Shown here in pieces: positions 23,966 through 64,000 of a stretch of DNA of 64,000 nucleotides. The position numbers and the translations under genes are program-made. The stretch is taken from assembly GCA_977862235.1 (NCBI GenBank), contig OZ374564.1:1488001-1552000 (forward strand). The letters run 5' to 3'. This DNA comes from Dudresnaya verticillata (lineage: Eukaryota). The notes under the pieces are model-generated. The model saw only the letters and a list, made by a program, of their open reading frames with translations. It was not told where the DNA came from and did not search any database. Each line of letters opens with the position of its first letter. Within the stretch, counting starts at the first letter, position 1.

Positions 23966-25539
23966 TGTGGTGAAGCGGCCGTTGTGGAGTTCCAACGACG
24001 GTTGAGCCGACTCGCGCCCGGCGCACCGGTGAGCTGGCGCCAAAAACCGAACGGGAGTGCAGCAACACAGTAGCACTGTACGCCTTGCTGGAGTCTGCGG
24101 GCACCACCAATAGGAGCCAAGTAGTTGATTTATTTGTAATTAGTTAATTGTAATGATGCTGTACAGTACGTAGTGTCAGCCGGCCAATGGGAATGCCGAG
24201 CATGTCCGCAACGGTGATCGGGACCAGTAGGGCCAGACCCACCTGATGGACCAGACCCATTGGGGTCTGACCCACACGGACCGGACCACGGGGCGTATCT
24301 CCCAGTATATTAATGGCTGGTCACCCGAGTCCTACATTAAACGGGTACTGTGGTGCAAACGTCTGAGACGATAGACCGCCAAGCAGTTCGGGGCTCGGTG
24401 GGTAGCTGCGCTCTCGGCGATGAGTAGCCTCGCCGTGGGCGATTTGTTGGTAGAGCAAAGGGACACGCCTTGGGCGGACTGTAAACGCCCGAGGCGGAAG
24501 GTGTGAAGGAAGGGAAAAGGAAACAGAAAGGGAACACGTCGAGGACGATGGTAGACGTGGAAGCACGGGAGGTAGACGCTTGAGCCGTAGGCAGCGGTAG
24601 GATACGCGCGTGCGGAACGGGGAAGTCTGGACCAAGGCCGGCTTGCCCGGGCGTTTACTGTTACGTCTGGGACGGCTTACCTAAGTATAGTACGGCGATG
24701 CGGCGGCGGCGGTGCGTGTGCGTAGCGCGGGAACTCGGGACACGTGTCGTCCCGAGGTGCGTCTGACAGATCACCCATCGCATGCAGCCGCGCGCCTGAC
24801 AGATTGCTGTACAACCCCCCTGTGCGGTTGCTTACACGCACACGTGGACGCGTGTGCCTTACATACTGTAGAGCGTGCGCCTTGGATCTAATCCTATACT
24901 TTTCCGATCCCGATCCCATCCGGATCGGGCCAGCGATGCGAATACCCGCAGCCTTACAGGCGCGTATCTTACAGCTTAGGCAATCCGGATAGCCAATCTG
25001 GATACCGGATCCGGATCCCATCTGGATCCGTATTACAGTGCCCCGGGGCGCCACGTCGGCCCATCACCGTACAGTGCCCGCGTGGCGCGCGGCGCGCAGT
25101 GTGCGCGCGCGCCCCAGTGAGCCGTCGATGACGTGTTTGCGCGCCAACGGCGGTGGTGAGCGCCGGTGGCGGTTTCTCCGTCGGTCGACGTATTTGGTCT
25201 GCCCGCTTTCAGCGAAAAAGGACTCACCTCCCCTTGCACCACAGGTATGCAACCCTGGGCAAAGTGACTTACCCTAAGCCTTACCCTCATACTCCTTTAC
25301 GGTTTCCCCTCGCCAGCCCCGTGCACGGATTCCTCTTACCTCCGTCCCGGTGTAGCTGCCCTGGCACTGTACCGTCCACCTTGTCTGTTGCGTCCCTTTA
25401 CTCCTTACAGGTGTTGCCGCTCGGGGTACTCTCTTCGGTCTACGAACTAAGCTCTACCACCCCAGTGCCGTGTGAGATCACCCCTTATTGGGATTGCCTG
25501 ACCAGCTCTCCTTACAGGTGTGCCTTTCACTTCACCACA
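23966..25539 (+). mobile_element. Solo LTR, family B (contains solo LTR C)
   Basis: Perfect terminal inverted repeat TGTGGTGAAG...CTTCACCACA. TSD CATAA / CATAA. Second copy at 42473-43799. Confidence 0.9.
24349..25243 (-). mobile_element. Solo LTR, family C
   Basis: TGTGGTGCAA...TTGCACCACA with TSD GGTAC / GGTAT. Absent from the second B copy. Homologous to 37333-38168 and 48291-49169. Orientation is inferred. Confidence 0.88.
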
Positions 25540-25624: not shown

Positions 25625-26413
25625 TGTAGTATAGCCGTCAGCACGCTATCAGCAGCGGCTGTAAGGTATGCTGGCAGCCCCGCACTGTAATGGAGCACAC
25701 GATGACGCCCGCTGGCAAGTCGTGATTGGGCAGCGTGCCCTTAGTTTTTTCGTTGATTTAGTAGCGGTCGACCGCATTTCTGCGGGCAGCGGCCGCACGC
25801 CGTGCCGTACACGGCCCGCCCCAGGGCGCTCTCCGGCATCGAGTCGTTGAGAGGGCCGCTGCACAACGGGCGTTACGCCCCGCGCGCCCACGGGTAGCCA
25901 TTACCCGGACGTGTCGACACGTGTATGGGCGCGAGCTCGCACACCTCCCGCGTTGGTGTTGTGGGGCGCACCTACTGTAGAATAGCCGTAGTGTATGTGA
26001 CAGTGTACATAGCGTAGGGTATTTAAGGGAGTCTGCCATCGACGGCTCAGTAAACCGGGTAAGCAACAGCTCGCGCTGAAGCTTGCCCCCTCCTCTTCGG
26101 GTTCGATCCCTTTGCCTTACGCCAGCGGGCGGTTTCCCTTTTCCCCCTTGCCTCGCTAGGCTTTCCCCTTTCCTTTTCCTTTCCGTCGGCTTCGTGTCGC
26201 CCTTCGACAGGGACACTGGGATCCGGCCGCTGCCTACCCGCGTACGGTACGCCCCGTTCGCGCTCCTGCGTCGACGCCGTCGATCCGCACCTGCGAGGCG
26301 CACGCGGCCGACACAGCTCTACCACACAACAACAGCTACCCATCCACGGGTCTATGTGGCGGCTTCAGACCAGCGAGTATCAGACGTCGGATCGACCCGA
26401 CATCTATACTACA
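25625..26413 (+). repeat. 5' LTR of element D
   Basis: Direct repeat of 38440-39212 with TG...CA ends. Confidence 0.95.
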
Positions 26414-26414
26414 C

Positions 26415-26430: not shown

Positions 26431-26480
26431 AAGTCGTCGAGACCCTAGTACTTCTCGCATCGACGCGATCGAAGTAAAGG

Positions 26481-28880
26481 ATGTCGAGTCCTCCTGATCC
26501 GGCCACTGCCGCTTCGGCTGCTGCCGGTAAAGTTGAGGATGCGGCGCGTCGCACCTCAATACTGCGTACCATCGGCGTCTCAGATACTCCTCTACAGGAC
26601 GTGAGGCTCAAGCGGAGGGCCACGCTGCAAAAGTCCCTCGCCGGTAATCTGGCCTCGGTGGCCGACCTCCAGCTCCTGTATGAGGAGACCATGGACTCGC
26701 TAGCCGAGGTGTACGACCACCTTACAGCTTCGATAGCTACAGCGAGGGCTGACGGCCAGCAAGACCTGGACACGCTTCGACCCGGTCCTTTGGCGTCCAT
26801 AGAGGACGGAATAACCCGGTCACAGGGGCTCCTCGATGAGCTACGCAGCCGCGTTGAGTTGATATAGCGCGCGCCGACGTGGCAACGCCAGCGTGCTACG
26901 GGCCCGTCGCCGGTGCAGTGCTCTCCTCCGCGACCACAGTCACCAGCGGGTGCAGTTCAAGAATTGGCCGCTGCCATACTTGCCGAGCAACGAGCTCGGC
27001 ATGGCTTTCCTTCACCACCGCCATCTCCACCGAGGAGCGCGGCGGGGTTGCACCATCCGAGTGGGGACCCCAATCCGTTCCACGGAGTCGACCCCAGGTT
27101 ACTCCGACAGGCCCTCGACGGGCAAAAGACAATGGGGGGACCGATCCCCCCGAAGCACGAGGGCCCGTCTCTGATTATTGGCATTGGGGCCCACTTATGG
27201 CAGGCATCGAGCCGTTAACCACGTTGGTGCCAGAGTTCACTAAGGCGATCGACTACCGCTCTTACCGTCTCGATGACGTAAATCAGCGGGACAACCAACA
27301 GCAGGTGTGCCGCGGCAACACTGCGAAGATTGTCAGCCGCATGAAGGCCCTATTGCCCCGGCTCGACCGGTTCGACGGCAAGGAGCCGATTCGCCTGCTT
27401 GGCGTGCTTCGACAGCTACGCCAAGCATTCAATGGCGTTGGACTATCCGAAGGCGCAGCGGCGCGTGTGGTGTCCTGGTTCCTTGATGGAACCGCGTTGC
27501 AGGTGTACTCGAGTCACCTGTCCTCTAGGGTGCGCAGAACGCAGCGCGGCACCCCACCCTGTTGGGCCTCGGTGGTCAATACCCTCATCGAGAGGTTCGA
27601 AACGGACGACATCATTGCAGACGCCCATGAACGGCTGACCACCGCCAAGCAGAAGGACACCGAGTCCGAGCTTGAGTTCGCCACTCGCCTCGAAGGGTAT
27701 GCGGACAACTGCGCTGGCATGTACTCCGATGAGAACTTGACGCATCAGTTCCTTCGAGGCCTGCTGCCCACGACAAGACCCGAAGTGGCGGAGAAGGTCA
27801 GGTAGCTTCCTATGGTCGAACAGACCAATTTTAGTACCGTTCGTCGGATTGCCCATAGCGAGGGCACAACCTACCGCGCCCTTTCGGCAAAGGCAGCGCA
27901 GCCTACGAGCACCTCGGGGCGCAGTAGGTCAGGTGGCAGCTCGGAAAGCGGCCGTACACTGCTCATCGAGGGTCCACCAGGCTATCCCAGCGGGGACGTT
28001 GCTATCGACAGGACAATGCGAGTGGACCCCGACACCGACGGGTTCGAACCCGTGATGGTCGCACCCGCGCTGTCGACAGCCGATTCGACCGGAGCCTTAG
28101 AGACCCTCTACATAACAGGACGCATCGACACGGTCCTACACAAGCGCATACCACCGCTCACTCCAACGCAGGAGGCGATGGCACGCGCAGTCATCCCTGA
28201 TCGACAGGGATAGTACATCTGCTGGTTCCACCGTGAGGTCGGGCACATCATGTGCTCGTGCCCGTACCTCACGAAGGAACAGCAGACGTACTGCGCGTAT
28301 GCGAGCTGCAACCATCGAATGGAAACGCAGCCGCATTCGCGCAATATGCTCCAACAGCTCATCGACGAGCGCGCGCCAGCGGGCGCATGGACAAGGAACC
28401 CCACGCGGCGCTACGACGCGCCACGGGGTGGGGACCGACGCTTCGACGCGAGAGGTCCGCCGCAGCGCATGGGCGCACCAAGGCACCGCGGAGAGCCACA
28501 GGGGTACCGCGGGGATGGCGACGCACCGCGGTTCCTCCTGCGCGATAAGCGGGTCGGCTTCGACGAGCCCGCTGGCTGTCAACCTCAGGCATCGACGCCT
28601 CCGAGGGCCGACCCGCGCCGCGAACTGCTCAGAGCAGTTATGACGGTGCAGGAGCACACCGGTCTCACCGCCGACGAGTGGCTTCCGCAAGCGCTCGACG
28701 CGCGGCGCAAGGGAGAGACAGCCAGCGGGCAGGAAAGCGATTTCCCTCTCCTTTTTGACACGCCTCCGCGATCGACGCGAGGTGCCTCAGGGGTTACGAA
28801 ACACCCAATAGGAACCGATCACGAAAGCTCGGATTCCGAGGATAATTCTGACCGGGTCGATCCGGAAAAGAATAAAGGCG
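26481..28880 (+). pseudogene. gag: gag of element D (stops and frameshifts)
   Basis: Capsid-like 'FDGKEPIRLLGVL...WASVVNTLIERF...AKQKDTESELEFATRLE...FLRGL'. Degenerate zinc knuckle 'ICWFHREVGHIMCSCP' at ~28215-28265. End coordinate is approximate. Confidence 0.85.
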
Positions 28881-28889
28881 GCGCCGCTC

Positions 28890-31800
28890 GTGCGGTCGCG
28901 TGCACCGTCTTGTCCAACACCAGACCCACCATCCCTTTCACCTTCGGTGGCGTTGGGGGCGGCGAGCCCCCACGTCGAGCGCAGCAGCGCTTCGAAGGAC
29001 GCGACCGACGTCCCGGTCGCCGGTACGTCACTGGCAACACGTACCAAACCACCCTGGCGGCCGCGGCGTCGACGCAAGCGGCAGGCCAGGCAGAAAGGGC
29101 GCAGCTCCCCGGTAGCGGGACAGGTGGTACCCGACGCTCGACGCGAGGGTACCGGGGCTCCATGCATCGACGTAGAGCCGGCCACTACTCCCGATGGGTA
29201 CGTTTGCCTCATGTCTTCGGAGATTTATCGAGTGTCCGGGTCCCTCGGTGCGGACCCGCGGGTTATGATACCCCACACCATCGCGGTGGACACCGGCTCC
29301 AGGTACAACCTCATCGCTCGAGGTGCCCTGCCCGCAGGCTGGGAGGAAAACTCGTCAGAGATCGACTCCGCGCCACGCCTGGCAGGCGCCGACAAGACTC
29401 CGCTGAGGCTGTCCGGCGTCGTCCACCTCTCGATGAGGTTGGGGAACACGACGTTCCGCGTGCCTTTCATCGTCGCCGCGGTCGACGTACTGATAGGCAC
29501 GCAGTTTATCAACGCGCACGTGCGCGGGATCGACCTCGAGTAGAGGAGGCTGACGCTGAGGAAAGGGGGCTCGGTGCCCATCCTCAGCCGCAGGAACCCT
29601 AGCGAGGGAAGCGGTCCGGCAACGCAGCCGGAGAACCCATCGAAGGGTTTGTCGAAGAAGCACCAGCGGGAGCCCCTCGACTGGGATCACGATACTCACA
29701 CCATACATCTCGCTAGGCAGGTAGTTGTCCCAGCCTACTCGCAGAGGCTCGTCTCGGTGACGTCGGGGGCCAGTGGGTTAATCCAGTCGGAGCCCAAACC
29801 CTCGTTGCAATTCCTCCACGGCGTGAGACTGAGCAACGGGGTGCACGACATGGAGTCTGGGCGACCCTTCGGGGTTATCTTGGGCAACTGGACGGACAAA
29901 GCCCGGACCCTACCGAAGGGTACCGTGGTTGGTTATGCGGTCCGTAACCCAGTCGCCCTGATAACCCCGGACCGCGACGTCGCAGAAGAGTTCGGGAGGG
30001 TGATGAATATCACCACCCTTCCCCCCAAAGGGCAGCGGCCCAGGGGCAAGGGGAGGAATGACCCCCAGTCACGCCGTCGATGGCAAGGGGCCCCGAGCCC
30101 ACAAAGCTCCGAGGTGCAGCAACCGTAGCGGCGGAGAAATGAGAGTCCGTCGAGGACTGGGAGTCGCAGGTGGACCTTTCGCCTATCGAAGACAAAGTCA
30201 CCCGCGAAGAAGTCCTCGCCATGCTTCGGAAGCATCAGTCCATGTGGGACGGGAGGCTCGGCACGATTGCCGCTACGCAACACCACATCGACGTGGAACC
30301 CGGCACGCGGCCGATTCACTCAATGCCCTATCGACAGGGCCCCGCTATACGGAAGCTCGTATAAAACGAGGTCGAGACCATGCTGCGTGCAGGGGTAATC
30401 GAGCCCGCTACGTCGGAGTGGGCATCGTCAGTCGTTCTGGCGCCCAAGAAGGATGGCACGCTCAGGTTTTGTGCGGACTATCGACGTCTTAACACCAAAA
30501 TCCTGAGCGATGCGTACCCACTCCCACGCATGGATTACTGTATCGACAGTCTTGGCGACGCTGCCATATTATCCACGCTGGATTGTAACGCGGGGTACTG
30601 GAAAAGCCTTGTCGCAGCGGCTGACAGGGATAAGACCACGTTCACGACGTTCCTAGGGACCTTCCGCTACCTGCGGATGCCCTTCGGACTGAAGAACGCC
30701 CCTACGACTTTCCAGGTGCACTGGACATTATACGCAGCGGATTTAGATGGCAGTTGTTGTTTGATCTATCTCGATGATGTGATCATATTCTCGCGCTCGA
30801 TCGCGGAGCACGTTGATCACCTAGACCGCGGGCTGACTCTGCTTCGAAAGGTCTGCGTGTCCCTGAAGGTGAAGAAGTGCCACTTCTTCCAGTCCCGCTT
30901 GGACTACCTCGGTCACATGATCAAGCCGGGGAAACTACGCATGGTGAAGACAAGCATCGACGCGTTCGGCCATTCACAGTTCCCGACCTCCCTAACGAAG
31001 GTGAGGTCGTTCCTCGGGGCGTGTAACGTTTTCCGCCGCTTCGTGAGGAACTTCGCGAAGCTCGCTCGTCCACTGACGGATATGACCCGCAAGGATGCGG
31101 ATTCGGATTTCGATAATCCAAGCGCAGCGGCGCTAGAGGCATTCGAGATGCTGCGGGCGACACTCTTATCACCGCCTATCCTACGGCTCTCCCTCGCGAT
31201 GGCAAGCCGTACGTCCTCGACACGGACGCATCGGCGTACCAGCTCGGATGAGCCCTGCTCCAGGAGCAAGAGGACGGCCAGTTACTCCCCGTTGGGTACT
31301 GGTCTTACTAACTAAGCTCAGCGGAGCGAAACTACTCGGCCACGGAGCGCGAGTGCTTTCCAGTGGTGTGGTTGTTCACAAACCTGCGTCCCTACATCGA
31401 AGGGACCAGGTTCACGGTACGAACCGACCATGACGCTTTGCGCTGGCTCATGTCCCTGACCGATTCGTCCGGTCACCTCACCCGCTGGCGGTTGCGACTC
31501 GCGGGATTCGACTTCCAGATCGAGTACCGCCTGGAAAGGGTACACCAGGTGCCGGACGGGCTGTCCCGTCTGGTGAGGCCTCGAGGGCAGCAAGAGGAGG
31601 TTGACGGCGACGGCCCTGCCTATGACCCCCCGGCGGTCGACCGCCGGAATGAGGGTGCCTCGAGTACCGAACCCAAGGCACCACCGGTCTTGCTGACCAC
31701 GCGGTCCCAAGCCAACGCGTCGACGCGGAAGGCGCCGGATCGACAGGCTGTAGAGGACGGCAATAGAAACGAAACCAACGAGCCCTCGGACGGCGACGAG

Positions 31801-33014
31801 CCACCGGGGCTTGCAGACGACGAAGCCTGGGATGACTGCGACGACGTCGACGTCTTCGACCTTAGCCGCATCGACGCGAGCTAAGAGCCGACGGGCCTCA
31901 CCCGGGTCGAACCGGTGAAGCTCCCTTCACCAATAACCGTCGAGTAATTGATGGATGCGCAGCGGCGCGATTCCTTTTGCCAAACAGTGTTGGCACGGCA
32001 GTCCCGTCGACGGGATAGCCACTTATTCGAGGGCGAGGACGGGCTCTTCTGCAGGCATCAACCCGTCATCTCCTCGTTGGAGCAAAGAGTGGTGCCCGAA
32101 GCGCTACAGCCGCGGCTTCTCACGCTCGCGCACCACTCCCACCTGGCTGGCCACCCTAGCCAGAACAGGATGTTCTACACGCTCCGCGAGAGATACTACT
32201 GGCCACACATGTCAGCGGACATAGCCATGACAGTTCGGAACTGTTTTCATTGTGCCAGGAACCGCATACGATTGCGGAGGTCCCTTCATCGGTTGAAGTT
32301 GTTCCCGGCCACGAGGCCGCTCGAGTCGCTCGCGATCGATATCCTAGGGCCGCTGCCCAAGAAGAAGTCAGAAAAGCGCTTCCTGCTCGTCATGACGTAT
32401 CTATTCACGAAGCTGACTCCAGTAGCGCCGCTGCGCACCATCACAGCTTACCACGTCGCAGTGGCATTCTGTGAGAGGTGGATCTTCCACTATGGACCAC
32501 CGAGGTCTCTGTTGTCAGACAAATGGAAGCAATTCATCTCTAAGTTCTTTCAGGCAGTGTGCCGCTACCTCGTACTGAACAATGCGTTCACGACGAGGTT
32601 AAGAAACACAAGAAGCTCCAGAGCCCAGCGATAGGGCCCTACCGCGTGCTGCTTAACGACAAGCGCACGCTGTTTATCGACAAAGCCGGCCTGGTCGAAC
32701 GCATCGCAGCATACCGCGCCGCCTACTGTCCCCCGCCGCTGCGGGAGGATACCGCGCAACACAGCCCATACTTCCCCACCGCTGAGTAACTCGCGCCAAA
32801 GGCCGTAGATGGCCCACGGTTCGTGGTAGATAATGTCCTTGACCACGTCATGGCCGACGATGGCACGCTAGTGTTCAAGGTGAAGTGGACCGGCTATCGC
32901 AAGCCGACGTGGGAACCACGTTCCCATCTCCCCGCGGAGATGGTGAGCCACTATGTCGCATCGCAGCGGCGGTACAACACCAACCGGCTCGAAGCCGATC
33001 ACTCCTCCTCATAA
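28890..33014 (+). pseudogene. pol: pol of element D: protease, RT, RNase H, integrase (partly deleted), chromodomain
   Basis: PR 'VDTGS'. RT 'KKDGTLRFCADYRRLN...YLDDVII'. RH 'YSATERECF...TDHDALRWL...VPDGLSR'. INT 'HHSHLAGH...CFHC...AIDILGPLP' and 'GPYRV', with the C-terminal half of the core missing near 32595. Chromodomain 'VDNVLDH...FKVKWTGYRKPTWEPRSHL'. Confidence 0.95.
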
Positions 33015-34340
33015 TCCCTCGGCGGGGGCGCCTCGCGCTTGAGGAGGGGGCCGCAGGCATTTTTTGCCTTTTTGCGAAGGCAATCGATGCCTCACCCTAC
33101 CCTGCAATGGGCACTGAGCCCAGGCAGGTCACTCTTGCACCAGCAGAAGCGGCAGCAGTGCAAGAGGGGCCGCGGAACGCGGATTCATGCGCATCGACGC
33201 GCACAAGGCGGCTGCCAGCTAACCAAACCTGTCGCAGCGACCCCGGGCTGGTCGAACGCACTCGCAAGCGGCGATGAGACACAACCGCTCCCTCGCCTTC
33301 GCGCGCGAAAGGCGTCGAAGCCTCACGCGCAAAAGGTAAGGGGCGCTGACCAGCGGCTACCGAAGCCACTAACCAGCGCCGCGCACGCGGCGCTTCGTTC
33401 GCTCACGCCAGTGCCACCCATTGCGCCAGCAGCGGCTGCGGAGCGAGAAGGGGTGACCCCAGCGTGGGTGCAGAGCGGGCGCGTCGACGCACCCAATTCC
33501 GTCGCTGTCGAAGCGAAGCGGTGTGGGACAAAGGGTAGCGGCCCGATCGCCATCGCACTCAAGTGCATCGAAGTGCCGTTGCACTCGATGTGTAACGGCA
33601 CCCCAAAAACAAGCGTCACTTTGGCGTGGGCGCCGGTGCGGGGCGCACGCAGCGCATCGAGCGCGAAAAGTGTTCCTGCTACAGTACGTACTGTAGCCGA
33701 GGGGTTGGGAAACACCCTACCATGCCAGCGGGCCGGAAGGGAACAGCCAATGAAAGGGGTTTCGAAAAATCCCCAGCCAACTATTGGCTATAATTTGGGC
33801 GCAAACCGCCTCCAGGCGGGGAGCAACAGCCGCGGCTGATCGAGTCAGCCAGAAGCGGCACGCCGCCGGCACAAGCAGTGGACTTGAGGCAGCGGTCTCG
33901 CCGAAGCTAGCCGCAGTGGCACCAGCCGCCCAAGATGGGCGCACAGGGGCAGCCACTGTAGCCTCCCCATGCCAAGGTGACATGATGCGCAGCGGCGCTG
34001 GGGAGCCACATGGAATAGGCACGCGTACCTATTGCACCTGAGCAGCGGCTCACGCAACCCCCGCGCTGAGACGACCGCTGTCATAGCACAGTGGCGGCGC
34101 ACGCGGGCTCGATGCGCGCGCACGCAGCAGTCACTTGGGACAGCGGCCCGACGTGGTGAGCTACTGCGCTGGCGATCGCTTTCGCCAAAATAAGTTCGCA
34201 TCGACGCGGGCCGAAGCAATATCCCACCCCTTTCCCTTTAAACTTTTCTATAGACGCAGCGGCGTAACTGGACTAAAAGGCGCAGCGGTGCTCTATTGAC
34301 TGGGTGCCACGGCACCCCGGAGCACTATGCGTCGATCGCA

Positions 34341-37278
34341 TCACTGGGCAGCGTTGCCCCCGGCCCCCGCTCCCGTCTGTGCAGTCTTCGACGGCGGAAA
34401 GCCAGGAGCGGAGGTGTTATAGCCGGTCACCTGGGCCGCAGCGGGCGGCTGAGTTGGCGCAGCAGCGCCTGCCGCGGTAGCCGACGCGTGGTACACCGCA
34501 GTGGCGTCAGCGGCAGCGGCCGCTAGCCCAGCGGAGCTCACTTTCCCCACTAAGGGACCATAACCCTGCGGCACATAGCCCAGGGGGACGGGAGCAGCGG
34601 CGCCCGGCTGCTGTGGGACTCCACCGCCCTGCACCACCATCGATGGGTTGTAGCTGGGGGGTCCCATGGGAGCACATGGCCAGCGGGCCCTGCGGCATAA
34701 GGCAGCATCGGTTGCTGCTCAGCCTGCGCTGGCGCATACGAAGGCATCGGCTGCTGCGTCAGCGCCAGCGCTGGGGGCGGCTGATACTCCTCTCGTGGCC
34801 GCTTGCCGAGGGATCCAACGACTGGGGACGAGCGGGCAGCGTGCCTCAGCTCCCCCTGTAGTCGTTGCGCATTGTGTGCAGACCTATCCCGTTCGGTGCG
34901 ATAGCGGAGGGTAATGGCGTTCGAAGCGGAGAGATCGTCATTCGTCCCCGCTAGATGGACCGCAAAGGCGGTAACAAGAGAGCGCAGCGGCGAATATTCA
35001 CCCAACTGTACGACCGTAGCGGCGCGGCGTACATTCTGGTCGATCCAGAGACTCGCTGCCGCCGGCGCGTCGAGTGCATCAGTTGTGGGCTGCGGCACAT
35101 AAGGGGCCACCGCCATCGACGGAGGTGGGCCTTATCTCACCGCCTGCCTCGACGGCGTCTAGGCAGCCGATCGACCACCGCCTGCCGCTCGTGACCTCCA
35201 CCCATGGCAGCGGCCGGGGGAGGCGGTGCCAAAGCTCGGGGCGCCGGTGCCGCGACGCGTGGCACCGCCGGCAGGTAGGGCTCGGCCTCCGAGGCCATAA
35301 CTGCAGCGGCCGACTTAGAAGCTCCACCTATACCCCGAAAGGCGCGCGGCTTAGCGGCTCGCTCGACGCGGGCCGTATCCGCCATCGAGGCGTAGCCACG
35401 ATCCTTCCGCGGCGTGCGTGCGCGTTGGATCTTGTGGAAGGTCTCCGCCACCGCGTTGACCCCGCAAGTGAATGCATCGACGCGTGTTGCCAAGTGGCGG
35501 CGACGGGTGTGTTTCTCTCGTACCGCGGCCTCGAAGCGCGTCGTGTTCAGCAGCTTCTTGAACTCGAACGTTACCGATGTGTTATCCAGGCCTGACGCGT
35601 CTCGGAGACGCGGAAAGCCCGGGCGCCTGCTGCGCCACAAGCGATCGAGGTAGACCAAGAGGCGGTCATCGAGGACCCAATATATCTCCTTCGATAGGAT
35701 GTCAGAGGCGTAACGACGCCCCACCTCAAAGGTATACTCGTCGGAGCGCCTAGCGAGGAGCTCTCGACGAACTTCCTCACTCCCCGCCGTGGCGTAGTGG
35801 AAGTATCGCTCGACGCTGGGCCACGGGACGATCATGGCAGTGGGCACGTCCCGGTGGGAATAGCACTCCGCGGAGGGAGACCACGCCGCGTCGTGCGCCG
35901 GGTGCAAGCTTGCACCCGTGGTGATGAGCCCATCGTCGGGGGCGCGGCAGATCGCCCAGTCCCGCTCTCCCATACACACGCTGAGGAGGCGGCGTACGCA
36001 GTCGGCATCGGCCAGACCTCGCGCCTCCTCCGGTGTCTCCCCGATGGGGATGTCCCTCAGTCAGGCCAACGAGGCCGCGAGGGGCTCGTGGAACCCATCG
36101 ACGGGTTTCATGAAAAGGGCTTCGCCGCCTTTATCCACGATCAGCAGCTGCTTGATCGTGGTGAAGAACGAGATGTCACACGGTAGGCCGTTCGGCACGA
36201 GCCATATCGGCGATGCGGGCATGAAGGCGTCGTAGGCAGCGGCCCCGCCATCATCGCTCGCATCTGCCACGCGCAGGAGACGTTGGACGGCGATCCTTGG
36301 CACGGGCAGCCGACGCCACTGATCTAGCGGGATCTGGTGGCGTGGTGCCTCCCACGCGAAGACAGTGGGAGCCAATGAAACTGCATTGGGCACCGCGACA
36401 CCGAGTCGCTGGGGCCCAATGGTCAGATACACCCCTCGCATGGTGATGACCGGCAGAGGGGGAGCCACGGCAGCGGCCGATGAGGAATCAATGGCAGCAG
36501 CCGTAGTTGTGCCAGGGGCGGTCGACGCCCCTGCACCGGGGTCGCCTTGCGCCGATGCGCCGAGGCCCCGTCGGGGCACAAACTGAGCCGCAGCGGGCGC
36601 AATTCTGCTCCCCCTTGACGCGGAGGCCGTCGACGACCCCGTTAGGGCACGGGCGCGAGCCACGGGCGGCGCGTCGAGGCGCGGAGCGGTAAAGGGCACA
36701 GCGACCCGAGCCGCCTCCTCTGGGTATGGAGTGGCATCGGCCGCTCCACTCCGGTCCAGACTTCCCAAGCCACGCAGCGGCGGTCCTTGGTTGGCCACCT
36801 CGACCTCCTCGTAGCTCATCAGAGGTCGGGTCGCCCTACCCCGAGCCAGCGCAGCGGCTGCTGGATCAGCGGGCATCGCGGTGGGAGACGTGTCAACCGC
36901 AGCGGCGGGACGCATCTCCAGTGTCTTGGAGGGCGCAGCGGCGCCCTTTCCAGCTTCGCCGGTAGCTGATGGGCCGGCATGCGCAGCGGCGCTCGACATC
37001 TTGGCTTCGGCGTCGTGGGACGGCGCAGCGGCGCCAGCCCCAGCCGCCGAAGCCGCAGCGGGGCCAGTGGGCACCGAATCCGCCACCGCGGCGAGCGGTG
37101 GGTGTGGTGGCGCAGCGGCTCTCTTCCCAGGCGCAGCCTGCATCCGGGGGGGTTGAACATCCTCCACCGGTTCCACTGGTGCAGCCGTCGATGGCGCACC
37201 AACGGCCGGCGGCGGCGTGGTTGCGAGCTTCCCTCCGTCAGGGGCGCCCCGAGTGGCAGACGAGCGCTTCTTAGCCAT
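34341..37278 (-). pseudogene. Antisense ORF of element D, ~980 codons, unknown function
   Basis: ATG 37278 (MAKKRSSATRG). ORF-track segments 36061-37278, 35137-35979, 34550-35116 and 34341-34667 chain with one in-frame TGA and about two frameshifts. Homolog at 57225-59287. Confidence 0.8.
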
Positions 37279-37332
37279 CCCTATCGCCGCACGTCGACGT
37301 TCGTGGTCGCGTCGAAGCGCAGGGCAGGAGGC

Positions 37333-38168
37333 TGTCGTGCAAACGTCGTGCTGAAGACGGAGAACACCTCCGGGCCGTTCGGGAGCCCGGTGGGTAGCCG
37401 CTAATAGCGAACTTGGTAGAGCAGGTTGAACACGCCTAGGGCGGACTGTAAACACCCAGGGCGAGCGGACAAAGGGGCAAAGAAACCCAAAAGGAAACAC
37501 GTTAACAACGGTTAGGAACGTGGAAACACGGATAGGTAGACGCTTATGCTTCCGGGCAGCGGTAGGGTGCGCGCTGTCGCGGAAGGGAAGTCTAGACCCA
37601 AACCGGCTTGCCGGGGCTTTACTGTTACGTCCTGGACGAGGTACCTAAGTAATACTATGGAGCCGCGGCGCGGCGGCTGCATGAAGTAGTGCGCGGGAAC
37701 CCGGGACGCGTGTCGCGTGGAGGTGCTTCTGACACGTTCCGGGACAATGCAGCCGCTGTGCGCCGGCACGTGCGTCTTATAGAGGCGCGCTCGCACGGTG
37801 CTGTAGGCGATCCGGATTCCGATCGCGATTGGCACCGTATTGCAGGCGTGTTTCTCTTACAGTGGATCCCGATGCCCGATCTGAATGTCGGATCCGGATT
37901 CGATCGGGATCCGGGCCAATCTGACAGTAAACTCCCTTACACCTCGTTAATCCCGATGCATCATCCAGATCCGCTCTGCAGCGTTGCGCCGTACAGTGCG
38001 TCGGGCGTGCGCGGCGCTGGGTTGTGGCACCCGCGCGTCGGTAGGCCAATCATCGATGACGTGTTCGCGCCAACGGCGAATGAGCCGTTCCGGGTGACCG
38101 TCCGTCGGTCGACGAGGTTCTCGGCGCCCATGGCGAGGAAATAAAAGCTCGGTCCTCCGTGTGCCACA
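37333..38168 (-). mobile_element. Solo LTR E (family C) inserted upstream of the antisense ORF
   Basis: TGTCGTGCAAAC...GTGCCACA with TSD GAGGC / GAGGC. Absent from the homologous region at ~59300-59400. Confidence 0.88.
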
Positions 38169-38427
38169 GAGGCAGCGAATAACACACACAACGACAGCGG
38201 TCACTGGTGTGCAGAAGCGTGTGGGCAAGGGGAAGGTTGTGGAGAGCGATACCCGCAACCTCCCCAAAGCTTACTACGCGGTGATCCTTATATGTGCAGC
38301 GGCGCAGACGGGCGGGCACGCGCATACACCGTCGACGGTGTCACGTGCCAACCATTGCCAACGGCCACTCGGGATTGCCATCGTGGCCCCGGGAAACCTC
38401 AACGGCCGTGAGCGGGGCGCTCACGCT

Positions 38428-38439
38428 GGAGGGGGGCCG
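38428..38439 (+). promoter_or_regulatory. Polypurine tract of element D
   Basis: GGAGGGGGGCCG immediately before the 3' LTR. The same arrangement (GAGGGGGCCG-TGTAG) occurs at 59596-59610. Confidence 0.85.
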
Positions 38440-39212
38440 TGTAGTATAGCTGTCAGCACACTATCAGAAGCGGCTGTAAGGTATGCTGGCAGCCCCGCAC
38501 TGTAATTGTGCACACGATGACGCCCGCTGCCGAGTCGGGATTGGGCAGCGTGCCCTTAGTTTTTTCGCTGATTTAGTAGCGGTCGACCCCATTGCTGCCG
38601 GCACCGGCCGCGCGCTGTGCCGTACACGGCGCGCCCAAGGGCGCTCTCCGGCATCGATCTGTTGAGAGGGCCGCTGCCCGTTACGCCCCGCGCGCGCCCA
38701 CGGGTAGCCGTTACCTGGACGTGTCGACACGTGTATGAGCGCGCGCTCGCACACCTCCCGCGTTGGTGTTGTGGGACGCACCTACTGTAGAATAGCCGTA
38801 GTGTACATATCGTAGGGTATTTAAGGGCGTGTGCCATCGACGGCTCAGTAAACCGGGTAAGCAACAGCTCGCGCTGAAGCTTGTCCCCCTCCTCTTTGGG
38901 TTCGATCCCGTGGCTTTACGCCAGCGGGGGTTTCCCTCTTCCCCCTTGCCTCGCTAGGCTTTTCCCCTTTCCTTTTCCTTTCCGTCGGCTTCGTGGCGCC
39001 CTTCGACAGGGACACTGGGATCCGGCCGCTGCCTACCCGCGTACGGTACGCCCCGTTCGCGCTCCGGCATCGACGCCGTCGATCCGCACCTGCGGGGCGC
39101 ACGCGGCCGACACCGCTCTACCATACAACCACAGCTACCCATCAACGGGTCTGTGTGGCGGCTTCAGACCAGCGAGTATCAGACGTCGGATCGACCCGAC
39201 GTCTATTCTACA
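38440..39212 (+). repeat. 3' LTR of element D
   Basis: Direct repeat of 25625-26413. Confidence 0.95.
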
Positions 39213-39217
39213 GGTTC

Positions 39218-41140
39218 CAGCTCAGGTTACATCTGACATTAACGAGGACCATCGGTAAGCATGCATCGAGCATCGTGCTAAGGTTTCTTATAAGGACTAC
39301 GACCTGACGAGGATCTAGAAGGACATCGCCAAGGTTCGTATCGACACTTCTGAGAAATCTCCCGAGGTTCAGATATATACATCGATCTAGTAGATGACAA
39401 ACCAGGCGAACTGGAATCTGCTCTGAACCGCGTGAAGCAAGCCCGTGCTAATGGCATGTCAAATTCAGGCTGTGGCAAGTTGTCGAATCTGTTCGTCAAT
39501 TACAATTAGGTTTTCAAGGAAGGCCGTGAAAATCCCCACCAGCCAATGTGGAACCGATTAGGGTCCGACTTGCGCCGGAAACCAAACCGGTGCGGGTCAA
39601 AGCGCGACGCTATTCACCTGAACAGCGCGCATTCATGGATAAGTATGCTGAAAAGTTCCTGCACATGGACTTCGCTTTGCTTATACCGACCGCGGCTTGG
39701 AAAGCTGCGCCGCTGATCGTGCCGAAACCAGGCTCTAGGTCCAAATACAGGATAGCCATCGACTTGCGTCTCGTCAATGCAGCGACGCTTAAAGATTCAT
39801 GGCCGATGCCACATCTCGATTCAGAAGTTCTGGCCTTTGCCGGCACCTCATGCTTCCCCAGTTTGGATTTCGTCTCAGCTTATTGACAACTACCGTTGCA
39901 TACGGACTCGTACAGCTCTTGTGGGATCGTTACACCACGGACCGTGCTTGAATTCAAGCGAGTACTTCCTGGTCTGGCTAACGCTACGTCCTACTTCCAG
40001 AGTAATGTTGAACCTCTGTTCAGAGAGTTTCGACTCAACCTGAAGGCATGGCTAGACGATTTCAGTGCTCATTCTCATACCGAATATCACCTTCTTCGTA
40101 TCCTGGAACGATTCTTGCAAATATGCCATCAGCATGGACTATTACTTTCAGCTCTCAAGCATGTCTTCTTCTCCAAGAAGATGAAGTGGTGTGGGCGCAT
40201 TATCAACGACGACGGGTACCGCTTTGATCCTTTACGGCTTTCTGCGCTTCAGGATATGGACTTACCGCACACCGCTGCTGCGCTGGCCGAGTTTATCTAC
40301 TGCTGTAGGTCGATAGCGACGTGTATACCGGAATTCGCACAGATCGTTGCTCCACTCACGTCAGTGCTGGAGGAAGCCTACTCCCATTCTGGAAAACGCA
40401 CCAAGCGTTCAATCAAGCATATTCCGTTGAGCACTCTGTCCTGGGGCACTCCCCACGCGGACGCTTTCCGCAAACTGCAGGACACACTGCGCAACTCTGG
40501 TACCCTTTCTCATCCTAAATCGGGAATGGAGATATGCGTATTCACGGATGCATTATATCGGTTCTAGTCTTCCGTTGTGACCCAGACTCAACCTGAAGGT
40601 CTGGAGTTACCCATTGAGGAGCAACGCCACGAGCCGTTGGCTTTCCTTGGTGCGGAGTTCAAGGGAGCTGAAGTCGGATGGAGCACGTTTGAGAAAGAGG
40701 CCTTTGCCATCTTCAAGACATTCGATAAGCTTGACTACATCCTGACTGGAGCTAACCCGGCACATATTTACACTGATCATCGCAATCTGCTGTTTGTTTT
40801 TGCGCCTCTTGCGCTTGAACCCGCTCTGGGACGACACATCGTCTCAAAGGTCCAGCGCTGAGCCATGTTCCTATCAAGATTTCCGTACGTCATCGAACAC
40901 GTGCGAGCACCCCGAGGATTTCTATCAGGATTCCCGGGCGCTGTGTGATATCCGCGAAGTTGGCGGTCAAGTTAAGATTCAGGTTGAATGGGATGGACTT
41001 CCAGATGCCATTGACTTGACTTGGGATCCACTGCAACAAGTCCATGAAGACCTTCCAATATTACTCGCCAAGTTCTTGGCCTCTCCGGGAAGCGCCCGGG
41101 TCAAGGCAAAGGCTCGTGCTCAGTTTTCTTCTAAATGGCC
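39218..41140 (+). pseudogene. pol: Element A gag remnant plus RT, RNase H and chromodomain (protease and integrase deleted)
   Basis: RT 'YRIAIDLRLVN...WLDDF...KWCGRII'. RH 'VFTDA...WSTFEKEAFAI...IYTDHRNLLFVF'. Jumps after 'FPYVIEHV' (~40900) to chromodomain-like 'IQVEWDGLPDAIDLTWDPLQQVHEDLP'. Confidence 0.9.
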
Positions 41141-41176
41141 TCGGTGGCGAACTGCCAATCTCGGTCATAGGGGCAC

Positions 41177-42216
41177 TGTTACATCTGAGCACCATTTGCG
41201 ATGTGCTATTCAGGTCAGGACCCGCTGCGCGGTAACGGCTGATCCGTTGAGCTCCCGACCTGAATTCTGCTGCGTGGACAATGGCTGCACTATTGAGCGA
41301 CGTGGTGCCGCCTGGTATGCGACCGGGTGCCACGTACAGCCACTTAGCTGATGTTGTAAGAGAATATCAGATGACCTGGATTTACTCAGTCTCTGATTGG
41401 TAGCTCAGACCCGGCGTCATGTGTGGCCCGCGGCCCACGTTGAACGCGGCAAGTCGATCTCCCTTTGCATTTCGCTACCCGAGGCGCAGTTTCTCTGTCT
41501 TTTGTAGCAGGACGCGAACCGCGTTCTGTAGATGGTTGCGGTTACGCATCGTAACGCGCAGCGGCTAACAAGCATCGACTGCTTGTAGATAGCAGCCGGC
41601 TTCAAGCTAGTGAAAGCCACATTGCTGTTGTTTAGGATTTGCACGACCCATTCCAGTAGGGTAGAAACGTTGTAGCTAACCATTAAGATTGACTTCGGGT
41701 ACGTTACTACGCAATCCCCGTTGTGCCCTGCACCGAGGTCAACATAAATTGCCTCGGTCCGCCGCATTTTGGGAGAAGACGGCAAAGATCATTCACTCAC
41801 TACAGTGAGTCCTGGTTGGGGCAGTCAAGCGTCTAGAGTTCACAATAAAGGCAGCCCTCTCTCGGCGAAAAGACTGAGCAGAGAGGTAGTGCCCTCTCAC
41901 TGTTCCGACCTCTGTATCCCTGTTCCCTATCCTTTCGCTGACCGTACTGCACCTCCTACCAGCCTGCTATGCTCTTGCATATTTCGTTCGAACCAAGCTG
42001 GAAATATTCAGAACGATACTCCCGAGATCTGGACTTCTCAGAGCTCAACCTGAACGTCTCAAGTCTCAACCTGAACTTCCTGAAACACCCTCCGTTTGAG
42101 CTAGAGACTATTGCTCCACATTCAGGTCAGCTCCTACAATCTTCCAAAATACGTTGGAACGATAATAGTTAAGCCATACGCGTTGCCCACCGCGTCGCTA
42201 GCCCCAGGCATTCACA
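41177..42216 (+). repeat. 3' LTR of element A (with a 311-bp insertion)
   Basis: Colinear with 21674-23709, preceded by the purine run AGGGG. Confidence 0.88.
41527..41837. mobile_element. 311-bp insertion G (probable solo LTR)
   Basis: Absent from the 5' LTR (gcgttcacaataa). TSD GTTC / GTTC. Termini TGTAGAT...GTCTAGA. Confidence 0.8.
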
Positions 42217-42472
42217 CAAGTGAGAAAGATAAGCTTCTCAATATCAGCCAATCAGAGGAGACCTTGTGGATTCCTGGGGCTAGCGACGCGGTGGGCAACG
42301 CGGATTTCTTGCCTATTATCGTTCCGACGGATGTTGGAAGGTTGTAGGAGCTGACCTAAATGTGCTGCAATAGTCTCTAGCTCAAACTGAAGGTGTTCCG
42401 GAAAGTTCAAGTTGAGACCTGAGACGTTCAGGTTGAGACCTGAGAAGTTCAGATTTCGGAAGTAGAGTTCTG

Positions 42473-45044: not shown

Positions 45045-45729
45045 GTAATTCAGGTAGGGAGCTCAACGGTGCCGCCGTTGCCGGGCAGCGGGTCCTGACT
45101 TGAGTAGCACGTCCCAAATGGTGCTCAGGTGTAACAAACTGCACAATTAAACAATTCGGTATGATTGCATCAGGGCATATGGAAGGAAATCTAGTTGCTC
45201 TTGTCGGTAATGGCGACCAAAATACTTTCTATACTACCATTTAATATGTTCATTCTACAGATAATCTGGACGATTTCTAATTGTTAGCCAGAGATCTTGA
45301 TGCAATGATATCGAATCTGCGCAACATTTTCAACGGCAGAAGTTGTTTCGCATCAGGTCTGTTTCTTGACTAGTGTGCTAGCGCATCTGCATTTTGTCGA
45401 AGCTGACTCACTCTAATCTAATCGCAAAAATTGTATCATCACACCACACGCAGTACGTTCTGATCCCGATTGCCATTCGAACAATATGCCTTCACTGGGG
45501 GCCAGTGTCTATCCTACAAACTCATGAGAAGGCACACATTGGGGCAACCGCACGTTCACTTGAATGACCAATAGGGTCCCTGACTCAAATACAGTAGTAC
45601 GTGTCGCGTAGAGTATCTGCCTATAGGTAATTGGACTGTTCCTGAAAAGATAAAATGTCAGAGAAGAACCAAATGCACTATTTGAGCATTTGCACATTTA
45701 GTACGTCTCTCGGCACTCCTGATAAACCC

Positions 45730-48290: not shown

Positions 48291-49169
48291 AGTGGTGCAA
48301 ACCGTCTAGAGATGAGGAGCACCTCCGGGTAGTTCGATCCTGGTGGGTAGCACGCTGGTAGCGAGGGTGTGGTAGAGCGAAGGGAACACGCCGAGGGCGG
48401 ACTGTAAACGCCCTGGGCGGTAGGAGTGGAAACAGAGCTACAAAGAGAGAAAAGGAGAGAAAGAGAGACGCGTCAGGGACGTAGACGGACGCGGAAGCGC
48501 GGGCGGAGTTGCGCAGTTGCCTTCGTTGGTAACGGGAGGACGCACTAGCGAAGGGGCTTCAGGTCCGGGGCCGGCTTGCCGGGATTTACTCAATGTCCCA
48601 TAGGGTTACCTGATATACTATCGCTACGATGCGGACGGCGGCGGCATGGCGTGGCGCGCGGGAACTCGGGACGTGTGTCACGGCACCGCGCGTCTGACAC
48701 GTCGTCGTAGTCATGCAGCCGCGTACGCGCGGGTAAGGAGTAGCTTACAGACGTGCGCGCGCGTAACAAGTAGCTTACAGGCGCGCCCGCACGTCGGTAG
48801 AGATGATCCGGATTCGGATCCCGATCCCTGTCAGCATTGCTGGCACGTGGTCATTACAGGCGCACGCCTTACCTTGTAACGGGTCCCGATCTGATCCCGA
48901 TGCCCGGTCCAGATCCAACCCGGATCTGGGCCATATTTACAGACGCGCGCCTTACACCTCCTGGATCCCGATGGGTGATCCGGATGCGTGCCGCGTCAGG
49001 CGTACAGTGCCTGGGCCGCCATGCCCGTGCGCGATTGCGGCGTCCGTATGCCGTTGGGCCGACCGTCCGTGACGTGTTCGCGCGCGCCAACAGCAGTTGG
49101 GACTGCCCATCGGTCGACGCCTTATTTCACGCTCAGAGCGAAAAAGGGGCTCACCCCCCTTGCATCACA
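48291..49169 (-). mobile_element. Solo LTR, family C
   Basis: (A)GTGGTGCAA...TTGCATCACA with TSD ATTGT / ATTGT. Homologous to 24349-25243. Confidence 0.88.
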
Positions 49170-50760: not shown

Positions 50761-50814
50761 CCTCTTTGAACGATCGCCGGAATAGGGAAACCGGCGAGGA
50801 TCTGTCTTAATACT

Positions 50815-57224: not shown

Positions 57225-59287
57225 GCCAAGGGAGCATCACAACCCCGAGACACGGCAGCGGACTTGGAAGGGGGCGCAGCGGCACGTAGAACCGGCGCCG
57301 CAGCGCGCATCATCACACAAAGATAGGGTTGAGCTTCTGAGGCCACCACGGCAGCGGTGGACCCTGGTGCCGCACCTAGAACTCGACGGCCGCGCGACTT
57401 GGCGGCTCGCTCGACGCGAGCCACATCCGCCAACGGGGCGTATCCACAATCCCGCCGCAGCGCGCGCGTTGGATTTTTTGAAACGTCCTCGCCAGGGGGT
57501 TGACCCCACAAATGTACGCGCCGACGCATGTTGCGAAATTGCGGCGGCAGATATGCTTATCACGGATCCGAATCACATGACGCACAGTGGAAAACAGCTG
57601 CTTAAAATCAAACGTCATTGCAGTGCAATGAGTCACTGCAGTGCAATGAGAGCCCGCCATCCCTCGAAGGTGCGGGAAGCAGGAGCGCCTGCTGAGCCAA
57701 AATCCATCGAGGTAGACTAGCAAGCAGTAGCCGATGGCCCAGCAGATATCCATCGGCAAAATATCAGAGGCGTAGCGACGCCCTACCTCAAAGGCAATAC
57801 TCATCGGAGCACCTATCGAGGAGCTCTCGGCGAGCTTCCTTACTTCCCGTTCTGGAAGTACGGCTGGGCCAAGGGACATCCGTGCCAGCTGGCCCGTCCC
57901 GATGGGAATACCATTCTGCTGAGGGAATCACGACAACTCGAGCGCTGGGTGCAAGCTTTCACCCGTGGTGATGAGCCAATCACCGGGGGAGCGGAAAGTC
58001 GCCCAATCCCGCTCCCCCATACATATCCCAAGGAACCGGCGTGCGCAGTCAACATCTGCCAGACCCCGCGCCTCCTCGGGCGTCTCCTCGACGGGTATGG
58101 CCCTCCACCAGCTCATCGAGACCGCAAGGAGCTTATGAAACCCATTAACGGGTTTCAGAAAAGGCCTTCGCCGCCCTTATCCACGGTCAGCAGATGCTTA
58201 ACTGTAGTTAAGAACGAGACGTCACACGGTAGGCCGTTCGGTACGAGCCATATTGACATCGCAGAAGACATAAAGACGGTATAGGCAGCGGTCCCGCCAT
58301 CATCGCTTGCGTCTGCCACGCACAGGAGATGTTGGAAGTCAATCCTTGGCACGGGCAACCCAGGCCACTGATCCAGCGGGATCTAGTGGCGTGGTGCCTG
58401 CCATGCGAAGACAGTGGGAGGAAACTCATCTGCTGTCGGGACCACGTCACCAAGGCACGACGGCCCTATAGTAACCGAAACCACGCGCATGGTCGCGAGC
58501 GGCGGGTGAGATGCAGCTTCGGTGCACAGAGGAGTTGTATCAACGGTAGCGGCCGACAACGTTCCAGAGCGTTCGACGCCCCTGAGACAGGGTCCCCTTT
58601 CGACAAGGTGACGAGACCTCGACGTGGCACAAAAGGCACCGCAGCGGGCGGCATGATACCACCCTTCGCCGGAGAGGCCATCGACGCCCCCGTTATGGTG
58701 AGGGTGCGCACCAATGACGGTGGATCTACGCGCCGCACTGGGGCGGGCACTAGGGCAGAACTCGCCTCCTTTGGGCAAGGAGCGGCATCGGCCGCTCCAC
58801 TGCGGTCCACAGTTACCAGGTCATGCAGCGGTGGCGTCTGGTCCTCAGTCATTATGGGGGCGCTGCAAGCGCCAATCGCAGGGCCAGGACGCATCCGTTG
58901 CACCATTGGGGGCGCAGTGGTGCCCGTGTGGGCAACGAACACGGGCTCAACGATGCCCGGGTTAACTGCAGCAGCGCGGATCGATAACACTGCGGGCGCA
59001 GCGGGCAAACCTACAGGCCCCCGCAGTCTGAGCCAGCGCAGAAGCGCCCGCCGCATTAGCAACAGTAACAGCGGGGCCCGTGGGCACGAGATCCGTCGCT
59101 ACAGTAGGGGGCGTGTCCATCGGCGCAAGGACCCCGAGGAGCAGCGTGCTCTAGAGGGCGGTGCTAGCACCGCCACCGGCACTACCGGCTCAGCCATCGA
59201 TGGCGCGCCAGCAGCCGGAAGCCGGGTTGGAGTTGGCGCCCCTTCGGTATGGCCGCCACGATCGGCAGATGAGCGAGTCTTAGATAT
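57225..59287 (-). pseudogene. Second copy of the D antisense ORF (C-terminally truncated, decayed)
   Basis: 'ISKTRSSADRG' vs 'MAKKRSSATRG'. Also 'VADASDDGG..AY...IWLVPNGLPCDVSFLTT..LL.VDKGGE', 'ETPEEARGLAD.DC.RR.L..CMGERDWA' and 'FEVGRRYASDIL'. Confidence 0.88.
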
Positions 59288-59605
59288 TATTGCTTAACGC
59301 ACGTCGAAGCGGGTGTAAGCGTCGACGCGGAGTGGGGGAGGGGAAAACAAAAAATGTACGGAACCACGACAGCGGTCAGTGGTATGCTTGAGGGCGTTCT
59401 TGGGGGAAGTAGGAAGCCTGTGGGGTGCGATGCCTGCGATCGCCTCCAGGCTAAGCAGGGGCGGCCCCTTTTATGCGCAGTGGCGCAGAGACGGGCTGAT
59501 CGCGCGTACACTGTCGACGGGCATACACACATGGGCCCCTTGGTAACGGCTACTCAGGCGCGCCATCGTGGCCCTGGGCCTCAGTGGGAGTGCGCGAGGG
59601 GGCCG

Positions 59606-59965
59606 TGTAGTATAGCTTTTAGCACCCCCATCAGCTGTAAGGGGATGCACAGCCGCGCACTGTGATGGTGTCTGCGACGACGCCCGCTGCCAAGTCGTAT
59701 TTGGGCAGCGAGCCCGTTAGTTTTTTTGTTAATTCTAGAGGCGATCGATCGCCTTGCTGTCGGAAGCGGCCGCACACCGTGCCACGCGCACCCCAGTGTC
59801 CCTCTCCAGCATCGACCCGTTCAGATAGCCGTTGCTCGATACGCCCCGCGCGCGGGAAGCCGTTATTCGCACGTGTCCACACGTGTATGGGCGCGCGCGC
59901 ACACCTCCCGCGTTGGTGCTGTAGAGGACGTATTCAATGTAAAAGTAGCTGTAGGTGTACATAGT
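59606..59965 (+). repeat. Truncated 3' LTR of a D-family element
   Basis: TGTAGTATAG after PPT GAGGGGGCCG, colinear with the first half of the D LTR. Confidence 0.88.
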
Positions 59966-63199: not shown

Positions 63200-64000
63200 G
63201 CCGACCTCAATACCGTCCTAGGCGCAGTTATACCGTCTCGGACGGACCTCTACCGCCCTCGGCGCTTCGCCGGCAACGGCGTTAAACATCAGAATTCGGG
63301 CGCGAACCTGCTCGCACTTCCAGGAAATGTCGCCCTAGGCGTGGATTACGGAAAAGCCGGTTTCCGATGAGTGACACGCGGAACACGCAGTATACGCGGA
63401 CACGTTGCACACTCGGCACCAGCCGAGCCGCAACCGCTCCAACATGTGGCTGACCAAATCATGTGGTACGTTTCTGTACGTGTAAGTGTAAGCATCCGCT
63501 TTACGTACGCCGCGGCATAGACAAATCTGTCAGGCGCGTGGCTGCATTCCAGGGCACTTGTCAGACCCGCGCTCGGAAGACACGTGTCCTGAGTTCCCGC
63601 GCGCCGCGACAAAGCCGCCGTTTCTGTATCAGTAGCAGTACTACATAGGAAACCCGTCGGGAGACGACTCAGTAAACCCCCGTCACGCCGGTCTGCCTTC
63701 AGACTTCGCCCATTCACTCGATAGCGTCATTACCGCGAACTGCGCTGGAGATTCGACGCGACGATCGCGCTTCCGCGTCCAATTCCGTCTAAGACGTGTA
63801 CCCTTTTTCCCTTTCTCATCCGAGAAGCTCGGTGTCCTCCACCCTCAGCGCTCAAGAGCGGACATCATCGTTACGCTATTAGCGTGGGATACGTGCCCGA
63901 ATACCGCGCAAACGCCTCGTTCCCGTCGTTGACGTGTGTTTTCCCCTTGTCTCCTTTTCCCGTCTGTACGACACTTTCCTTTCCCCCTTTCTCCGCCTCG
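63200..64000 (+). mobile_element. C-related LTR running off the window end
   Basis: 'gacacgtgtcctgagttcccgcgc', 'aatctgtcaggcgcgtggctgcat' and 'cagtaaac' match the reverse complement of 24650-24805. Start coordinate is approximate. Confidence 0.6.

Follow-up and report, generated by a model that had tools for sequence, protein, structure and literature searches.

A long reading frame on the minus strand of a Gypsy-type element, lying between pol and the 3′ long terminal repeat (LTR), raises the question of whether the element carries a further gene antisense to gag-pol and, if so, what the product of this gene might do. The locus is found in a stretch of 64,000 nucleotides from Dudresnaya verticillata (contig OZ374564.1), which is called the window here and consists of repeat-rich eukaryotic DNA with retroelements nested in one another. 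The element, termed D, extends over 25625-39212 (+) and encodes gag, reverse transcriptase, RNase H, integrase and a chromodomain. Its 5′ LTR (25625..26413, +) and 3′ LTR (38440..39212, +) both have TG...CA ends, share 724 of 769 aligned positions (94%), and are bordered by a 5-bp target-site duplication, with the copies of GGTTC located at 25620-25624 and 39213-39217. A purine tract, evident from the sequence itself, lies directly 5′ of the 3′ LTR (38428..38436, +). By its LTRs, their TG...CA ends, the target-site duplication and the order of gag followed by RT-RNase H-integrase, D is a Ty3/Gypsy LTR retrotransposon.

The coding domains of D are recognizable in a decayed state. The broken gag stretch (26858..27805, +) matches Retrotrans_gag (PF03732) at residues 204-303 of its frame and has three relatives with 53-65% identity. 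The reverse transcriptase and RNase H (30365..31509, +; PF00078 at E 2e-23 and PF17917 at E 1.8e-31) are interrupted by stops and frame changes. The zinc-binding and core domains of the integrase (PF17921 and PF00665) and the chromodomain that forms its C-terminus occupy 31948..32933 (+); the chromodomain itself, at about 32820-32933 (+), reaches 29.2 bits against a cut-off of 25.1 for PF00385. Every domain of gag-pol is disrupted by stops or frame changes, so D is a dead copy. A second RNase H of the archaeal type, a trait of Tat, Chronos and Archon elements, was not detected in the three frames of 31000-31900 of this decayed pol, where only RT_RNaseH families were matched. A segment between protease and reverse transcriptase (29700-30000, +) has no Pfam match and is reminiscent of the degenerate, dUTPase-like linker known from some Gypsy elements. 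The distance from the end of pol to the 3′ LTR is about 5.2 kb.

The DNA immediately right of D (39530-41351, +) encodes the reverse transcriptase and RNase H of a further Gypsy element, together with a weak match to a chromodomain. D appears to be nested in this element, LTR-like repeats being present at 22968-24345 and 41199-42854. A solo LTR of the D family is located at 44274-45045 (+) and is flanked by GCAAT and GTAAT. Other repeats in the window include a non-LTR reverse transcriptase remnant (21800-23152, −; PF00078), a remnant at 60000-61500 (−) that we take to be a DDE transposase, and a perfect 74-nt tandem duplication at 7343-7490. Two related open reading frames (ORFs) at 6110-6511 (+) and 14267-14896 (+), which are 39% identical over 46 aa, have the appearance of secreted host proteins rich in cysteine; neither has a Pfam match, and the longer one also lacks an Atlas match. 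No tRNA genes were found in the window.

The antisense gene (34342..37278, −) is placed between the chromodomain and the purine tract with the 3′ LTR, on the strand opposite to gag-pol. An earlier note, made from the letters alone, had described it as a gene of about 980 codons. The start of this gene was confirmed, with an ATG at 37278 and all the quoted peptides in frame, but its intactness was not: an in-frame TGA at 36061-36063 interrupts it at codon 406, and frame changes around 35140-35250 and 34650, after about codon 690, divert the tail, so that the length of 980 codons is a reconstruction. Translation in a single frame from the ATG ends at codon 714. The helical segment, the KRPR motif and the Q/P/Y-rich tail reported earlier are indeed encoded, in two other frames that run down to a stop at 34342. 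The tail by itself needs 2 breaks, compared with 3.4 in shuffled sequences, and 36 of 200 shuffles are equally open, a difference that is not significant; it is also absent from the second copy of the gene described below, and the frame assigned to it is the least secure element of the gene model. The conserved core (codons 280-650; 35329..36441, −), which is supported by dN/dS and by ten credible homologs, had been thought rich in W, Y and C. This could not be upheld, as its content of these residues (W 2.2%, Y 2.7%, C 1.6%) represents no notable enrichment.

Across 2934 nt, the minus strand can be read with a minimum of 4 breaks, compared with 11.3 in dinucleotide shuffles, none of which (0/200) is as open, and the plus strand of the same region needs at least 11. 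In minimum counts, the density of breaks in the antisense gene (1.36 per kb) is like that in gag-pol (1.78 per kb), suggesting that the gene was whole when D inserted and then decayed with the rest of the element. These values bear on the idea that the frame encodes an env-like protein for entry or is open by chance in GC-rich DNA. The location between pol and the 3′ LTR would suit an envelope gene, and a GC content of about 65% makes long frames common, as on the plus strand of the second copy. However, an envelope gene is contradicted by the antisense orientation and by the lack of a clear membrane span, the maximum 19-residue hydropathy being 1.27 in the first 714 codons of D, and a chance frame is contradicted by the shuffles and by the selection and homologs described below. 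In agreement with the earlier note, no recognized domain, signal-like start or other env feature was found by Pfam (E up to 1) and hydropathy analysis. This explanation is largely refuted, and we give it almost no weight.

A second, more decayed copy lies at 57242..59287 (−), with 72.9% nucleotide identity to D over 1543 nt that span codons 1 to about 695. It is followed at 59363..59963 (+), by alignment to D, by a D-like pre-LTR stretch, a purine tract and the start of a D-type LTR. The earlier report of a second copy in the same position before a D-type LTR is thus correct in its placement, but the copy is truncated, carries several frame changes relative to D and has ATA at the start position, and the adjoining LTR comprises only the first ~360 nt. 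The truncation is due to an inverted LTR piece at 56933-57199; this piece and another at 50812-51064 (both −) are 3′ halves of D-type LTRs. The missing 3′ half of the LTR next to copy 2, together with the inverted 3′ half that cuts the copy, suggests a local inversion. Between D and copy 2, nucleotide identity is similar in the ORF (72.9%) and in the LTR part (70.9-75.7%). The pol that adjoins copy 2 (53.5-56.2 kb) is 29-47% identical to that of D in tblastx blocks, whereas the core of copy 2, at 56-69% identity, is closer to D than this pol is. The plus strand of copy 2 (57223-59297) is unusually open, with 2 breaks compared with 9.3 in shuffles (0/200). Its ORFs run across the points at which copy 2 shifts frame with respect to D. 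This speaks against a sense gene in the ancestor, but does not fully explain the openness.

The comparison of the two copies provides the principal evidence for selection on the protein. Over 354 codons of the core, dN/dS is 0.39 (bootstrap 0.29-0.52), far from 1 and well under the neutral expectation of 0.76, which was obtained with the observed mutation spectrum kept because transitions dominate; none of 1000 permutations reaches 0.39. The estimate comes from a single pair of copies within one window and, with both of them decayed, combines time under selection with neutral time. Values in the remaining five frames are 0.58-1.56, with 5-22 stops per copy as compared with 1 and 2 in the gene frame; the value of 0.58 comes from the sense frame whose third positions coincide with those of the gene frame. 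Within codons 280-650, differences by codon position amount to 0.21, 0.17 and 0.31, the third position being highest. For the N-terminal 279 codons, the ratio does not differ significantly from the neutral value (0.79 versus 0.90; 207/1000). Between the two copies, divergence is comparable in the ORF, its flank and the LTR, so that the selection likely accrued inside the element.

Relatives of the protein were obtained by a HMMER search of 1,835,955,588 representatives, which gave 11 matches with E values of 0.001 or below, the best being 8e-17. Ten of the 11 are credible homologs with 25-46% identity, all of them unnamed proteins; P0015 was dropped as a repetitive protein in which 31 residues are matched seven times. 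The homologs were assembled in Logan or ENA, their contigs measuring 1.1-9.2 kb; they may not be retrotransposon genes, and the D gene might have been captured from a host. In pairwise comparison, the cores of the six longest rows are 22-39% identical. When the row of D was left out of the profile, the core of D (35605-36423) was still recovered at E 1e-47, as were two pieces of copy 2, and the rest of the window gave no match. Conservation falls largely on W, R, D, P, G and hydrophobic residues; no Cys or His is conserved in at least 80% of the family rows, and a conserved cysteine cluster is absent. Together with the openness of the frame and the dN/dS of the core, these homologs bear out the view of the earlier note that the element carries a protein-coding gene antisense to gag-pol, and show this gene to be under selection. 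We regard it as very probably a real selected protein-coding gene, and its status as an accessory gene borne by the element as probable.

Four homologs, P0008, P0010, P0012 and P0013 (585-835 aa), look full-length and intact, and share a layout of a disordered start, a core of roughly 330 residues, a heptad-rich coiled coil and a low-complexity tail. Clusters of basic residues are present in the disordered arms of D and of these homologs, and the highest 19-residue hydropathy of the homologs, 1.3-1.7, indicates no clear membrane span. A profile of their helical segment did not match the tail of D, whose heptad score is 1.15 compared with 1.40-1.73 in the homologs; the coiled coil is accordingly established for the homologs and not for D. 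KRPR falls in the least certain part of the D gene, and the homologs do not have it at that position.

The family could be detected by the full HMMER search and not by word-seeded protein searches, which gave no match to the core at 392-1250 aa (7995 candidates) or at 30-391 aa (5798 candidates). Scans for related loci with the core confirmed 0 of 52 pattern matches in metagenomes, 0 of 8 in viral sequences and 0 of 33 in prokaryote genomes, a reverse transcriptase scan of viral contigs confirmed 0 of 3, and a gag-alignment scan of genomes 0 of 58; no stretch of the family alignment is conserved enough for locus scanning. For the family, Pfam and NCBIfam returned only weak coiled-coil families, and the cores of the 11 matches have no Pfam match at E up to 1. 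TRP28 (PF04195) was likewise absent from the D antisense ORF and the homolog cores at E up to 1. Sequence searches of the PDB yielded nothing for the core and two coiled-coil matches for the profile (E 2.7-2.9), and phage records contained no match for the family. In the literature covered, which left most subscription journals, Repbase reports and supplements outside, neither this protein family nor antisense ORFs in red-algal Gypsy elements were found described. No described family was matched.

An alignment-guided AlphaFold run (16 rows) gave a mostly helical core with pLDDT 61.9 and pTM 0.65, this being the one good model of five, the other four having pLDDT 41-50; prediction from the single sequence (pLDDT 32.5) was unusable. 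Foldseek found no match to the core model in PDB or BFVD at E 0.001, and a wider structural alignment to 48,161 chains had a best Z of 3.7, below the usual level for unmatched models. A fold like that of MAIN/PMD was not recovered from the medium-confidence model in these fold searches, with the same best Z of 3.7, or by Pfam. In the ESM Atlas, the core of P0008 had no usable feature match, and the structure rows, with TM 0.21-0.35, were obtained on a poor model. On the basis of a medium-confidence model compared with experimental and viral folds, the core fold may be new, with the proviso that an absent structural match does not prove a new fold.

The region upstream of the gene is informative about how it could be expressed. 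A non-coding module 5′ of the ATG in D (37334..37794, −) recurs at three other sites of the window, with 70-79% identity to that of D: at 24447..24805 (−), where no cargo ORF was found; at 48292..48762 (−), where it precedes a different broken ORF (47011-47760, −); and at 63524..63715 (+), close to the window end, so that whatever it precedes falls outside. It is absent from copy 2, appearing as a gap in the alignment. A 24-mer pattern of the module has four matches in the window against 0.00 expected, a count that shows recurrence only, as these four copies served to derive the pattern; it has 0 matches in metagenomes. Several motifs are kept in order, namely an AT-rich element, (C/G)AGTAAA about 25 nt later, a pyrimidine tract and TTTACAG, and the spacing of the first two is also present in the LTR. 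The module is likely a putative antisense promoter with a 5′ leader, and the conserved TTTACAG could be a splice acceptor, judging from its sequence. An interpretation of the module as an inverted LTR was unsupported (z 0.3 for the D copy and 1.3-5.1 for the others). The conservation of this non-coding module between copies also gives some support to the view that an antisense RNA from the internal promoter is what matters, acting in self-regulation through double-stranded RNA with the protein being secondary, and such a role has been discussed for other elements (PMC7264820). The bias of divergence towards third positions and the protein identity retained by distant homologs, however, indicate selection on the protein, and we consider a purely RNA-level role quite improbable.

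The ORF at 47011-47760, downstream of the module copy at 48.3 kb, has a weak match to DUF6818 (E 2.7e-4, under the cut-off), a domain that we take to be Myb-like. No paper naming DUF6818 was found in the literature covered, and no purine tract with an LTR was identified for this module copy. The recurrence of the module ahead of a different ORF is the basis for two readings. According to the first, the gene is a passenger, originating from another mobile element or the host, which landed in the 3′ region with its own promoter module and is useless to D. The presence of the module at three sites not linked with a purine tract and LTR of the D type, the short contigs of the homologs, which may come from loci other than retrotransposons, and the fact that no pol can be assigned to copy 2 itself are all compatible with this reading. 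On the other hand, both copies are found at one and the same position, in front of a purine tract and LTR of the D type, the ORF, flank and LTR have diverged together under selection that likely operated inside the element, and terminal repeats were not observed on either side of the ORF, which makes a passenger rather unlikely. According to the second, related elements would keep the module as a cargo slot and swap the gene behind it, with the exchanged genes encoding trans-acting anti-silencing regulators as a class I counterpart of VANC. It is doubtful that, in an algal-type chromodomain Gypsy lineage, the slot is occupied here by an unnamed family whose fold is apparently new and elsewhere by a DUF6818 protein.

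For the accessory gene itself, the mechanism that we propose, largely by analogy, is that of a nuclear regulator, to which we attach somewhat less than an even chance. The gene would be the third gene of a chromodomain Gypsy element, selected, antisense to gag-pol and now present as a broken copy. A second, minus-strand transcript would start from the upstream module, serving as its own internal promoter, and would encode an accessory protein that is predicted to be nuclear and to oligomerize through a coiled coil. Its core might bind DNA or chromatin, and the protein might act in trans on element expression, keeping copies expressed as a transactivator or an anti-silencing factor, much as the earlier note had suggested in naming anti-silencing or transcriptional regulation. 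This regulatory effect is proposed because of the analogy with Grande gene23, Retand TRP28 and VANC. Against the regulator reading, no DNA-binding or chromatin domain was recognized in the core by Pfam or fold searches, both copies in the window are dead, and KRPR lies inside the unsupported tail. An element-encoded protein that works outside the nucleus, as a scaffold or chaperone of virus-like particles, an RNA escort or a factor for movement of the element between cells, would fit the evidence for a selected element-borne gene equally well; moreover, a coiled coil with low-complexity arms suits a scaffold, as does the lack of a recognized DNA-binding domain. We nevertheless hold this to be unlikely, in view of the basic clusters in the disordered arms of D and its homologs, the absence of a membrane span or a signal-like start, and the nuclear location of Grande gene23, an antisense ORF whose location has been tested (PMC7264820).

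The layout of D, with an antisense gene between pol and the 3′ LTR, is already known, and the protein family, as far as sequence searches extend, is new, with no named family or recognized domain. Boty, one of the elements with such a layout, is a chromodomain element. The statement of the earlier note that antisense 3′ ORFs occur in plant Tat elements agrees with published descriptions of such ORFs in Grande, RIRE2, Retand and PvRetro13, and also in fungal Boty (PMC7264820). The closest comparison is with the antisense 3′ ORFs of Tat elements (aORF-3R of Retand, Grande gene23 and rice RIRE2), which share position and orientation with the D gene, probably resemble it in having their own promoter, and combine a globular domain with a coiled-coil-like segment, as do the homologs of the D gene. 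Grande gene23 in particular is a nuclear protein with its own promoter (PMC7264820). In the available part of PMC11963269, antisense ORFs of Retand carry TRP28, predicted to be DNA-binding, 11 of them being Smc-like, and the region from pol to the LTR measures 2.9-6.6 kb, which is long as in D. According to the same part of that source, Retand is a non-chromovirus with TRP28 (PF04195) ORFs, whereas D has a chromodomain and an ORF that, like its homolog cores, has no Pfam match. The role of antisense extra genes in LTR retrotransposons is described as an open question (PMC7264820 and the available part of PMC11963269).

Outside plants, brtn of Boty/BcGypsy1 in Botrytis cinerea is, like the D gene, an antisense extra gene of a Gypsy element (PMC7264820 and the accessible portion of PMC8365987). 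The D family is large (585-835 aa in the intact-looking homologs) and has no conserved Cys. VANC, as characterized in the available text of PMC13547354, belongs to the VANDAL Mu-like class II elements of dicots, is related to MAIN/PMD and has a predicted coiled-coil segment for dimerization; its resemblance to the D gene is a functional analogy only, with no link in sequence or fold found. An integrase with a C-terminal chromodomain, as in D, is shared by chromoviruses, by oomycete Chronos (main text of PMC5348765) and by Ectocarpus lineages (main text of PMC12477816), so that the chromodomain alone does not prove that D is a chromovirus. Chronos differs from D in having a second, archaeal-type RNase H, according to the main text of PMC5348765, and the terms "additional ORF" and "ORF3" are absent from the main texts of both PMC5348765 and PMC12477816. 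Compared with these systems, the D gene places an unrelated protein family in this antisense slot, in a chromodomain lineage where none was found described, which points to repeated independent recruitment, and its intact-looking natural homologs P0008, P0010, P0012 and P0013 open the way to localization, structural and reporter tests.
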